A stretch of DNA of 61,151 nt, taken from contig CALVSP010000003.1 of the NCBI GenBank assembly GCA_944359065.1, forward strand, positions 1 to 61,151, in the 5' to 3' direction. How positions within the stretch are numbered: position 1 is the stretch's first letter; each line of letters begins with the position of its first letter. A model generated the notes under the pieces. The model saw nothing but the letters and a program-made list of their open reading frames with translations. It was not told where the DNA came from and searched no databases. The translations under genes were made by a program, and so were the position numbers. Shown here piece by piece: positions 16,211-17,953 of this stretch. The DNA comes from an uncultured Bacilli bacterium. Lineage in GTDB: Bacteria; Bacillota_I; Bacilli_A; RF39; UBA660.

Positions 16211-17953
16211 TTATATCTGGTACGGACTTGACCAAGTACCATTACCTCCGGTAATGGTGACATCAGAGTTAACAACTATAACCGGACGCAAGCCAAACGT
16301 GTAGGAAACGGAATCGGCGTAGTAGGCGTAACCAAAGTAGCTCACGCTCCAAGCGATAGAACTATTGGTATATGGTGTCATTGTCCAATATGTTGTTGCA
16401 TTACTATAATTACTTGTAGTTGTATAACCGTTAGTCAATATACTACTACTTTGGCTTGATAACATTTCTCCTATTCTTATTAATCCAACTGTTGCTTGTA
16501 TACTTCTTGTTGGATTTTCTTCATTCAATGATTCTTCATAATTATAAATTTCACCGCCAAGGCCATTTTGATACCAAGTATAATTACTTACTAATTTTGC
16601 TTTTTCTGTTTCATTATTATTTGTTAGCCAATTTAATACATCACTATTTAATTTTTGACCTATTCCAGTTTCTGTCGAAAATGTATTGTTGGAACCATAT
16701 GACATTTCATATATTGTTCCAGATGGTTCCTCATAATATCCATCTAGTATTAATTTTGTATTGCCATTACTATCTTTATCTACTACTCGATATTTCTTTC
16801 CGGCATGCATTACATATTCGCCACTTGTTGCTTTTTCATTTAATTTTCCTGTTATTTCTACACTTTTATCTTCGTTTAAAATATATGGCCCGGATTGACT
16901 ACTCCAAGTTGCCCCTAGAGTACCATTACCTCCGGTAATGGTGACATCAGAGTTGGCATTTATAACTGCACGCAAGCCATACGGGCTGGAAACGGAAAAG
17001 TTGTTCGCGCCACCAGTGTAGTACACGTTCCAAACGTTAGAACTATCATATGGTGTCATTGTCCATTGCCATTGTCCTATATTTAAATAGGAACTACTAC
17101 CACCAGCGAGATTATATTCATCTAGTGTTATTAATCCTACTTTTGATTTTTCAGTTGATAAATTTGTTGTACAACTTGTTCTCTCACTATATCTATCATT
17201 TGTTGTTTCACTACACCATGTTTCTTCTTTTATGATATTATTTCCTTTTAATTTTGAATAAAAATAATTATTTAACCAATCTTTGGCATAACTATCATCC
17301 CAATTTGAACTACTTTCGTGATATGGTATCACAGTTACATTTTCATCCGTTATTAATCTTACCGTTCCATCAGCATTGATTCCCATTATACGCCATAAAA
17401 ATCCGGAATACCATATATAATTAGTTGTTGGATGTTCAGATTTTCCTCCATTACCATATGCATCAGGAAGTTCTATAACTTTTGATTTTAAATAACATCC
17501 TCCCATATAACTATAGTTATTATCACCTAGTGTTACACAACCGTTTCCATTTGTTGCTAAATATGGAAATTGTTCTAATACTACCTCTCCTATAGTTTTA
17601 ACTGAACAGTTTTCTTCATATTTAAATTCATATTGTTCATATTCTTCTACCCATTTATATAATACACAACCTTGCATTTGCTCATCAGTTACTGGATTAA
17701 TAATACTATCCTTCAATATACCAGAATTAACTAACGTTGATAACTCTATTTTATTATAAAATGTTTGATATCCTATATCATTAGATATACTATACTCATA
17801 AGCTGCTTTTTCTATATTATTTATTACTTGTTCTAAAGCTTTTTCTTTACTACTTTTAATTGATTTATTTATTATTGGAAAAGTTATTAAAGCTATTACA
17901 CCTAATATAATAATAACTCCTAATAATTCCACTAAAGTAAAACCTTTTTTCAT
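16211..17953 (-). CDS. Type IV prepilin-like surface protein with two tandem DUF6273/C-type-lectin-like domains; DGR target
   Basis: Class III signal KKG|FTLVELLGVIIILGVIA; two domains (WRIMGINADGTVRLI / YRVVDKDSNGNTKLI) each ending WTMTPY...W.V...GLR.VI..NSDVTITGGNGT. Confidence 0.88.
   Translation of the reverse strand: MKKGFTLVELLGVIIILGVIALITFPIINKSIKSSKEKALEQVINNIEKAAYEYSISNDIGYQTFYNKIELSTLVNSGILKDSIINPVTDEQMQGCVLYKWVEEYEQYEFKYEENCSVKTIGEVVLEQFPYLATNGNGCVTLGDNNYSYMGGCYLKSKVIELPDAYGNGGKSEHPTTNYIWYSGFLWRIMGINADGTVRLITDENVTVIPYHESSSNWDDSYAKDWLNNYFYSKLKGNNIIKEETWCSETTNDRYSERTSCTTNLSTEKSKVGLITLDEYNLAGGSSSYLNIGQWQWTMTPYDSSNVWNVYYTGGANNFSVSSPYGLRAVINANSDVTITGGNGTLGATWSSQSGPYILNEDKSVEITGKLNEKATSGEYVMHAGKKYRVVDKDSNGNTKLILDGYYEEPSGTIYEMSYGSNNTFSTETGIGQKLNSDVLNWLTNNNETEKAKLVSNYTWYQNGLGGEIYNYEESLNEENPTRSIQATVGLIRIGEMLSSQSSSILTNGYTTTSNYSNATTYWTMTPYTNSSIAWSVSYFGYAYYADSVSYTFGLRPVIVVNSDVTITGGNGTWSSPYQI
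16235..16387 (-). repeat. Variable repeat 2 (C-terminal) with 3' GGA-triloop hairpin
   Basis: Core 16277-16363 is 44/87 GC and NNC-codon rich; 36 bp (16235-16270) identical to 16919-16954; hairpin ACCATTACC-GGA-GGTAATGGT at 16238-16258. Confidence 0.85.
16919..17065 (-). repeat. Variable repeat 1 (internal) with 3' GGA-triloop hairpin
   Basis: Core 16961-17044 differs from VR2 almost only at codon positions 1-2; hairpin at 16922-16942; 18 bp 5' identity TGGACAATGACACCATAT. Confidence 0.85.

Follow-up and report, generated by a model that had tools for sequence, protein, structure and literature searches.

A type IV pilin-like gene with two variable repeats and a truncated template repeat: a probable diversity-generating retroelement target in an uncultured Bacilli bacterium

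Contig CALVSP010000003.1 of the metagenome-assembled genome (MAG) GCA_944359065.1, from an uncultured Bacilli bacterium (GTDB lineage Bacillota_I; Bacilli_A; RF39; UBA660), carries at positions 16211..17953 of its minus strand a gene for a type IV pilin-like protein with two DUF6273/C-type-lectin (CLec) type domains, each closed by a repeat of unusual composition. We consider it very likely – with a probability of roughly 0.85 – that this gene encodes the variable protein of a diversity-generating retroelement (DGR): the two repeats have the properties of variable repeats (VRs), and the truncated remains of an adenine-rich template repeat (TR) stand directly behind the stop codon. To our knowledge, DGRs are the only natural system that rewrites chosen codons on demand, and their wiring into cellular (as opposed to phage) genomes is, as far as we know, poorly mapped. 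The gene assignment rests on a 580-aa open reading frame (ORF) with its translation, and on matches to Pfam N_methyl and DUF6273 above their cut-offs. The whole stretch analyzed, of 61,151 nucleotides (nt), is called the window; it is contig C3 of the assembly, whose other contigs are numbered likewise, and related genomes of the genus carry G numbers. The gene and the elements behind it are all on the minus strand.

The two repeats run in the same direction about 680 nt apart and close two homologous domains. VR1 (16970..17044; 75 nt) and VR2 (16286..16363; 78 nt, one codon longer) were delimited by repeat search, codon comparison and TR alignment; both are in frame and both have a GC content of 0.51, against 0.29 in the remainder of the gene and 0.251 in the genome. 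The repeat search recovered a 79-nt pair (16235-16313 and 16919-16997) at 87% identity and a variable pair (16319-16365 and 17000-17046) at 74%, in agreement with an earlier interpretation made from the bare sequence (the sequence-only reading), which had described two domains ending in homologous repeats; its count of 44/87 GC for VR2 is likewise close to the 0.51 found over 78 nt. Across the 25 codons that can be aligned, VR1 and VR2 differ at eight first, nine second and one third codon position, and third-position C reaches 0.44 and 0.50 in the two VRs compared to 0.10 gene-wide. The bias toward the first two codon positions, with third-position C retained, was correctly read from the sequence: the pattern is far from that expected under drift. 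Domain duplication combined with positive selection alone was considered and rejected, because a non-coding A-rich template exists.

This template lies just 3' of the stop codon, where a third, A-rich copy of the repeat (16067-16113) is, on the gene strand, rich in Asn codons (AAC/AAT). Repeat search and alignment with intact units define a TR remnant at 16070..16111, comprising the first 42 of 79 TR bases and lacking the 3' half and the spacer. Complete 79-nt TRs, very near the sequence that had been predicted, are found 3' of paralogous genes on C39 and C11. Each belongs to a TR unit of about 340 nt in total, made of a leader of about 95 nt with a 9-10 bp hairpin, the 79-nt TR, and a conserved spacer of about 160 nt that ends in a T-run. 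A third complete unit is present on C6, 79 nt from the contig end (any operon beyond that end would fall outside the assembly), and the unit recurs in 20 of 29 genus-mates, often in several copies. The window aligns with the C39 unit at 92% identity over unit positions 1-146 only, that is, over the leader and 42 of the 79 TR bases. The leader itself runs from the stop codon to the TR (16112..16210); its hairpin (16143-16169) here has one mismatch, and a predicted energy of -9.7 kcal/mol as against -15.7 kcal/mol on C39. Beyond the remnant, an AT-rich segment (15817..16069) stands where the TR 3' half and the spacer should follow. Proximally it bears no relation to TR units, distally it consists of the conserved region upstream of rpsB, and a 17-nt block within it (16042-16058) is common to the window and to the TR-less orthologous locus of G001. 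Since the TR 3' half and the whole spacer are lost, the window copy is no longer rewritable in cis. An AAY-rich template had been foreseen, and the full A-rich TRs on C11 and C39, together with the remnant, whose first 42 nt nearly match the prediction, bear this out. The template had also been placed at a distance: templating in trans does occur in this genome (see below), but with a TR remnant directly 3' of the gene the template is, or was, local. That 16067-16113 might be a third, degenerate domain was rejected, because the segment is preceded by the same conserved non-coding leader that precedes intact TRs.

For 15 TR units, RNAalifold predicts the leader hairpin, a long-range pairing and spacer helices. 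Double changes occur in only 4 of 62 pairs; RNA structure of the unit is thus unsupported by covariation, and its conservation is mostly at the level of sequence. A scan of 15600-16400 against Rfam, at E up to 1, returned 0 matches; promoter-like sites occur at chance frequency (19 found, 18.5 expected), and the one terminator-like site (0.6 expected) lies inside coding sequence.

The adenine specificity of the process is clearest where the template is intact. The C39 TR offers 26 A sites and 53 non-A sites, the C11 TR 24 and 55. On C39, VR1 differs from the neighboring TR at 9 of the 26 A sites and VR2 at 12, and neither differs at any of the 53 non-A sites: this is textbook mutagenic retrohoming. 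VRs on three further contigs, none with a TR of its own nearby (C42 ends at a contig boundary), fit the same template. On C5, changes affect 13/26 A sites and 1/53 non-A sites in VR1, and 12/26 and 0/53 in VR2; the figures are 17/26 and 1/53 for the C25 VR, and 12/26 and 1/53, plus one additional codon, for that on C42. Because the C5 and C25 VRs match the C39 TR yet have none of their own, they also show templating in trans. The C39 TR itself is followed by tilS, ftsH and other housekeeping genes, and its exact cis match (0/53), on a 13-kb contig without a reverse transcriptase (RT), indicates that TR units work away from the RT. For the window, comparison with the C11 TR gives changes at 10/24 A and 6/55 non-A sites in VR1 (p = 0.0045), and at 13/24 A and 5/55 non-A sites, plus a 3-nt gap, in VR2 (p = 3e-5). 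Adenine-directed retrohoming, as read from the sequence alone, therefore stands on the C39 comparisons (0-1/53 non-A against 9-17/26 A changes); the window VRs show the bias, inexactly.

In loci of relatives, VR1, VR2 and the local TR share bases at non-A positions that are specific to the locus – GGGCTT in VR1, VR2 and TR of G010:C14, GGTCTC in G001:C81, and TCGGTTACG...GGCTTG in G028:C24 – which indicates that each TR writes both VRs of the neighboring gene. Variation across the family falls in the same places. An alignment of 65 full-length relatives gives the VR consensus SSxAWxVxxxGxAxxxSVSx..GLR, in which x marks the Asn codons of the TR, and 22 of the 40 columns of highest entropy fall in VR1 (residues 306-325) and VR2 (533-553). 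Polymorphism confined to predicted template adenines had been proposed as a check; in the comparison of homologues, 22 of the 40 most variable columns are in the VRs, at Asn codons of the TR.

A tblastn search with the protein found at least 12 two-domain paralogues in the genome (on C2, C5, C6 (two), C11, C25 (two), C29, C30, C34, C35, C39 and C42), plus several matches to the N-terminus only. With so many copies, recombination or gene conversion among a dozen paralogous pilin genes – cassettes of the pilE/pilS kind, with no retroelement – might produce variation by itself; the at least 12 loci would supply the partners, and the C39 and C5 genes are mosaics in which 100%-identical blocks (VR2, leader) stand beside a divergent block that holds VR1. 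Conversion, however, fails to explain why changes are confined to template adenines (0/53 non-A), why non-coding templates of Asn codons stand behind genes, why an operon of Avd-like protein and RT adjoins them in relatives, and why the variable columns coincide with the AAY codons of the TR. We regard it as very improbable as the sole source of variation; gene conversion may act in addition to the retroelement.

The mosaic itself extends over C39:7700-9700 and C5:35220-37220, which are 100% identical for about 830 nt (domain 2, VR2 and leader) and for about 500 nt upstream; they diverge in the N-terminus and over a block of 230 nt to which VR1 belongs. This arrangement suggests gene conversion, recent duplication or strain mixing in the MAG. 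The protein has 648 relatives at E ≤1e-5 among 8000 candidates scored, and nearly all clusters at 90% hold 1-3 sequences. Uncultured Bacilli or 'Tenericutes' are the labels under which relatives are recorded, one of them being Candidatus Faecisoma merdavium.

Seven genus-mates have, on the same contig as a TR unit and about 800 nt past it, an RT of 331-333 aa (G001:C81, G003:C20, G010:C14, G013:C2, G014:C34, G016:C6 and G017:C23). The order on G013:C2 is TR unit, a 136-aa MutS_I-like protein (MutS_I 23.3 bits, cut-off 20.6), a 113-aa Avd-like protein and the RT (RVT_1 65.2 bits). The Avd-like protein scores 30.4 bits against bAvd (cut-off 40) and 38.8 bits against NF033474 (cut-off 80); such scores alone are insufficient, and the assignment as Avd is supported by gene order. 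The best solved relative of the G013:C2 RT is 8ub7_A (E 1.7e-25), which we take to be bRT; retron-type and group II intron RTs follow at 2.7e-9 or worse. Two other observations were made at this locus. Three consecutive tyrosine recombinase genes (Phage_integrase, 74-114 bits) lie between the pilin target gene and the TR unit (458-3565), and a (GT)n run stands between the unit and the start of the operon (about 4108-4128), as also at the end of the G014:C34 unit; the run might make expression of the diversifier phase-variable.

Within the genome of the window itself, a PF00078 search of the whole assembly gave two weak, sub-threshold matches, none on C3, in keeping with the earlier remark that no RT lies near the gene. 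The better match is on C76, a plasmid-like contig of 4.8 kb with an Avd-like ORF (23.5-24.6 bits, below cut-off), an A-rich TR, and an RT interrupted by the contig end; this DGR-like cassette (C76 123-4775) lies beside a Mob_Pre relaxase and an HTH_3 regulator. Conceivably, the pilin TR units of this organism are served by the C76 RT. No other RT in the assembly has an Avd-like neighbor, and G045 holds, about 250 nt past a 41-nt match to the core of the pilin TR, an RT with 50% identity to that of C76. Yet the C76 RT is only 34% identical to the RT that adjoins pilin TR units in genus-mates (the remaining tblastn matches in the assembly have E 0.008 or worse), the TR and spacer of C76 have no similarity to pilin units (a search of the genome with both returned only the self match, and the assembly holds no VR for this TR), and the contig, given its Mob_Pre and HTH_3 genes, could be mobile or mis-binned. 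We consider a role for C76 unlikely.

None of the three outcomes that the sequence-only reading had named as refuting it (no TR or RT in this genome or in close relatives, repeat variation that is synonymous or not templated by adenine, and no CLec-like fold) was encountered. Taken together, the preferred interpretation of the gene as a DGR variable protein would operate as follows. The pilin-like N-terminus would serve processing and incorporation into a pilus, and each VR would encode an exposed beta-hairpin of a CLec-fold domain. Each such gene of the genus would normally have a TR unit of its own behind it, and a single operon of MutS-like, Avd-like and RT genes, placed after one of the units, would copy TR RNAs with errors at adenines; we infer that one RT thereby acts in trans on many units. 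The resulting cDNA would then replace the VRs, which would be marked by a hairpin about 23 nt downstream. At the locus in the window the TR unit is broken and its remainder has drifted, with no rewriting in cis. Established from the data are the anatomy of VRs and TRs, the adenine bias, the fold, the truncation, and the operon of the relatives.

A number of results weigh against this interpretation. No TR of the assembly is an exact template for the window VRs (5-8 non-A mismatches), and among the 26 non-A positions of the remnant the same 5 disagree with both VRs, four being third codon positions (by eye). A tblastn search for MutS-like, Avd-like and RT genes of the genus type found none in the bacterium's own assembly; the C76 RT is of another subtype, cut by the contig end, and has its own TR without a VR in the assembly; and all Avd-like matches, in whichever genome, lie under curated cut-offs. 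The pilin-fold match of the N-terminal head domain is weak (Z ≤5.4). The assembly (1.43 Mb in 104 contigs) is 85% complete with 2.7% contamination, and more than one strain may be represented among its contigs, given the 100%-identical blocks common to C5 and C39. Finally, metagenome data are ambiguous on ongoing variation at the locus. The data of all 22 listed metagenome runs are contigs, not reads, and four of the runs (X2, X3, X5 and X6) were aligned to the window; many short contigs cover the gene. Contig depth over the VR1 bin is 1.5 and 4.9, against about 100-140 in the preceding bin (X2, X3), and single contigs bridge the VR flanks with unaligned sequence between (for example 16972>17039 and 16288>16369), whereas one X3 contig spans VR2 without a difference. 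Because paralogues share these flanks, the pattern cannot be read as polymorphism of the window locus.

Two features of the remnant bear on its relation to the VRs. Codon 4 is GAT in the remnant alone; the C11 and C39 TRs read GCT, and the window has GTT in VR1 and GCT in VR2 (by eye): variation falls exactly at that adenine and ties the VRs to the remnant. Its five non-A mismatches, on the other hand, imply that the last writing of the VRs either preceded the drift of the remnant or drew on another TR. For the present state of the locus there are two courses, and we see roughly equal odds for frozen repeats and for repeats still written in trans.

The first course is that of a relic, once diversified by its own TR, whose unit then broke, with the VRs reduced to ordinary coding sequence. 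Only 42 of 79 nt of the TR are left and the spacer is gone, the remnant has its five non-A differences from both VRs, and the leader hairpin is weakened; the orthologous locus, next to rpsB, has a decayed TR in G010 and none in G001, and other loci are decaying in other ways (the C11 VR2 repeat is lost, and C11 VR1 has 8/55 non-A changes). What a relic accounts for less well is the state of the VRs: they agree at all inferred non-A positions save one (GCG/GCC) and keep a GC of 0.51 in a 25% GC genome, and the VRs of orthologues are completely different, so that rewriting continued after the species split. We give this course a chance not far short of even. The suggestion, made from the sequence alone, that the repeats were frozen after loss of the RT survives in part: freezing is viable, but if the copy is frozen, what can be seen to have caused it is the missing TR 3' half and spacer, not a demonstrated loss of the RT.

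The second course is that the gene is still diversified in trans by a TR unit missing from the 85%-complete assembly, with the local remnant irrelevant. Precedent is provided by the VRs on C5, C25 and C42, which match the C39 TR with 0-1 non-A changes and have no local TR, and by the syntenic G001 orthologue, also without a TR, whose VR2 is alike in its length of 82 nt (to the end of TR homology) and its GGCTTGCGT end while its variable codons are wholly different. Moreover, both window VRs retain third-position C where the remnant drifted, and both target hairpins are intact. The missing partners stand against it: a blastn-short search of the genome with the window VRs found no exact TR, no cognate RT was found in the assembly, and among 30 genus genomes there is no TR with the internal non-A bases and length of the window VRs. 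A search of the same genomes for the window-type 3' end joined to TR flank gave three matches, all of them 79-nt TRs with the GGCTTGCGT end and other internal bases. Continued writing in trans is a serious possibility, to which we would commit only tentatively.

Decay takes other forms elsewhere. The C11 paralogue (6466-8226) has an intact TR unit but has lost the repeat from VR2 (protein ...NANPSATFVVIDGGDAYFGLVLLNSSIRPV...), and its VR1 differs from its own TR at 8/55 non-A sites; as far as the sequence goes, this is decay of the target side, not of the template side. The last 460 nt or so of G010:C33, orthologous to window 15780-16215, hold a near full-length decayed TR behind the leader, which continues into a decayed pilin-gene 3' end up to the stop codon, with the hairpin destroyed. 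This sequence looks like an intermediate between gene end and TR, and may record the birth or the death of a template.

Each VR of the window is followed by a candidate target-recognition hairpin. A perfect 9-bp hairpin, ACCATTACC-GGA-GGTAATGGT, lies 23 nt after VR1 (16922..16942), and an identical one lies 23 nt after VR2 (16238..16258), with a folding energy of -11.9 kcal/mol against a mean of -5.2 (sd 2.2) for shuffled sequences. A stem of at least 8 bp follows the VR in 38 of the 62 distinct VR-end contexts collected across all loci; the loops differ (GGA, TCC, AAA, AGA, TCT, GGG) and the stem is conserved, and six contexts of a sister subfamily have another 8-bp stem sequence at a similar place. 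The hairpin is absent from TRs. By analogy, it fits the hairpin/cruciform requirement of Bordetella phage BPP-1; the initiation of mutagenic homing (IMH) sequence is definable by experiment only.

The fold of the variable domains agrees with their proposed role. DUF6273 matches the window protein at 28.4 bits (cut-off 23.5) over residues 510-562 only, and the C6 paralogue at 43.4 bits in two stretches. An AlphaFold2 (AF2) model of the full-length protein with 65 close homologues has a mean predicted local distance difference test (pLDDT) of 47.8 and is usable for residues 1 to about 150 only. Relatives of domain 2 (residues 350-580; 16214..16906) were taken from a profile-free scan of 1.84 billion representatives, which gave 384 sequences at E ≤1e-3; modelled with 81 diverse sequences, the domain reaches pLDDT 95.0 and a predicted template modelling score (pTM) of 0.91. 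The model has a DUF6273/C-type-lectin fold in which VR2 (model residues 182-207) forms a beta-hairpin with strands at 185-188 and 194-197. In a Foldseek search, 9qa6 is the sole match at E ≤1e-3, and VIA-align superposes 9qa6_A with Z 16.3 and a root-mean-square deviation of 2.8 over 184 residues, followed by Legionella Lcl (Z 8.7), TvpA (2y3c; 7.2), the Bacteroides fimbrial tip protein 4eps (7.1), and C-type lectins (Z 5-6.4), among them the mannose receptor (6.4), with Mtd (1yu0) at 5.5. By sequence, domain 2 had no meaningful match among PDB chains (best E 0.13). Domain 1 (residues about 160-345; 16919..17476) would be CLec/DUF6273-like by homology, its last 89 residues being 48% identical to domain 2 (E 5e-13). 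Of the two CLec folds that had been proposed, one is thus backed by a confident model and the other by internal homology only.

The protein begins MKKGFTLVELL, and a prepilin cleavage/methylation motif (residues 2-24, G|FTLVE; 17882..17950) scores 22.4 bits against PF07963 (N_methyl; cut-off 21.2) and 22.3 bits against TIGR02532 (cut-off 16.3) in profile searches. The class III prepilin signal recognized by the sequence-only reading is therefore above curated thresholds for both families; ComGC-like and GspG-like matches at the same place score under theirs. The N-terminal domain (residues 1 to about 120; 17594..17953) is the sole confident part of the full-length model (block pLDDT 63-86), with a long helix (residues 7-57) after the G|F-x-x-x-E-type motif, and a small sheet. 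Eight of the nine top structural matches of this head domain are pilins or pseudopilins (GspI, the type IVb pilin of enterotoxigenic Escherichia coli (ETEC), XcpV, PilJ, TcpA, PilA4, EpsG and PulG), all weak, at Z ≤5.4. The genome encodes a prepilin peptidase (Peptidase_A24, 58.7 bits; C34), pilus assembly ATPases (T2SSE, 421 bits, PilB-like, on C25; a second at 97 bits on C69), and a PilC-like platform protein (T2SSF, 104 and 72 bits; C34). Display on a type IV pilus is a plausible fate for this protein. Typical major pilins are far smaller than 580 aa; this protein may be a pilin of the minor or tip kind with two lectin-fold sites on display, and might function as an adhesin. One pilin paralogue lies directly 3' of the prepilin peptidase gene on C34.

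Behind the gene, the segment upstream of rpsB (15817-15948) is 99% identical to G001 and G003, against 83% for the neighboring pilin gene; it is a candidate for a conserved leader, or for a regulatory element, of the rpsB-tsf operon. On the other side (18044-19820) lie genes for SpoIIIAH-like, GerE-type and Germane (GerM-like) proteins, which indicate that this very small genome retains genes of sporulation type.

If the interpretation as a DGR target holds, one protein combines a type IV pilin chassis with two independently variable lectin-fold sites, and a dozen paralogues of about 1.7 kb in a 1.4-Mb genome amount to a large investment in variable surface binding, which suggests that attachment (to host, mucus, partner cells or DNA) is central to life in the bird gut. 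As a tentative and broader proposal, a lineage of gut Bacilli with genomes of about 1-1.4 Mb may have domesticated one DGR into a genome-wide system of pilin diversification: a dozen two-site genes, many with private, portable TR units, and one operon that reads them in trans. Equally tentatively, gene 3' ends would give rise to units and units would revert to them by decay, and the locus in the window would record the death of a unit, or VRs kept alive by another unit. In the latter case TR units could cross-serve paralogues. Loci that act in cis, loci served in trans and dead loci stand side by side, and bear on how target repertoires grow and shrink; the compact, well-delimited unit of about 340 nt, several per genome and found in 20 of 29 genus-mates, offers a natural collection from which to define the RNA needs of the RT. 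Groups that reprogram DGRs for directed evolution could also find the TR unit and the two-site scaffold of interest.

Comparison with known systems places most of the parts on familiar ground. The DGR of Bordetella phage BPP-1 (Mtd, TR, Avd, bRT; PMC3240598) is alike in its adenine-specific differences between TR and VR, in the VR at the C-terminal end of a CLec domain, in the hairpin downstream of the VR, and in its Avd-like protein and RT. BPP-1 is a phage, whereas the system described here is cellular, has a pilin-like target with two VRs per ORF, and has many target genes, several with a TR of their own; the operon in relatives has an additional MutS-like gene. DGRs with remote targets, such as that of Treponema denticola TvpA (PMC5758913), are alike in that one RT serves several dispersed targets and the variable protein has a CLec fold. 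The same survey describes a MutS-like (MSL) accessory class in 16 of 372 DGRs (Wu et al., PMC5758913), and the G013:C2 operon belongs to its MSL+Avd architecture class. According to that survey, TRs usually directly adjoin the RT gene; in the present genome, targets flanked by housekeeping genes (C39, C11) also have complete, solitary TR units behind them.

In Thiohalocapsa PB-PSB1 (PMC10907252), loci that lack RT and/or TR have VRs that match a remote TR at every site that is not an adenine, and one locus with a matching TR showed no variation. The targets there differ, being putative antigen sensors in STAND/MoxR contexts of a multicellular proteobacterium with a large genome, and the relevant passages of PMC10907252 mention neither a pilin fusion nor a conserved unit of leader, TR and spacer. 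The Bacteroides DGRs behind variable tip adhesins of type V pili (bioRxiv 10.1101/2024.11.15.621889) are alike in bringing CLec variation to a pilus in a gut bacterium. They belong to Bacteroidota and to a type V pilus built by sortase-like strand exchange (the term 'type IV' does not occur in the searched portion of the preprint), as against a type IV prepilin signal, a small-genome member of the Bacilli and two CLec domains here. DUF6273 itself is known from phage 'tentaclins' (PMC10743442), DGR targets whose VR forms a beta-hairpin on a CLec-like domain, and from the N-terminal domain of the Thomasclavelia ramosa IgA peptidase (PMC12402451; PDB 9qa6), of the same family and fold. As described in these sources, such kin are phage receptor-binding proteins or a sortase-anchored peptidase, none with a prepilin N-terminus. 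A 'GspG-type pilin' appears in a list of rare VR-bearing domains (PMC11661182), for which the available text gives no anatomy, TR units or two-VR architecture; in the literature searched this single line was the sole mention of a type IV pilin as DGR target. Several VRs per ORF are recorded for 31 DGRs in PMC6642488, along with cases of several TRs, so that neither property is new by itself.

CLec targets of DGRs, remote targets, MSL genes, multiple VRs and TRs, incomplete loci served in trans and diversified type V pilus adhesins are all already known. The literature texts searched describe no two-VR DUF6273 family among type IV pilin-like proteins, no self-contained leader-TR-spacer unit repeated behind many targets, and no such DGR system in very small Bacilli genomes, though survey supplements may already list loci of this kind. 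The mechanism, then, is a known one: it is the architecture and the host lineage that are unusual, and that make this a clean natural system.

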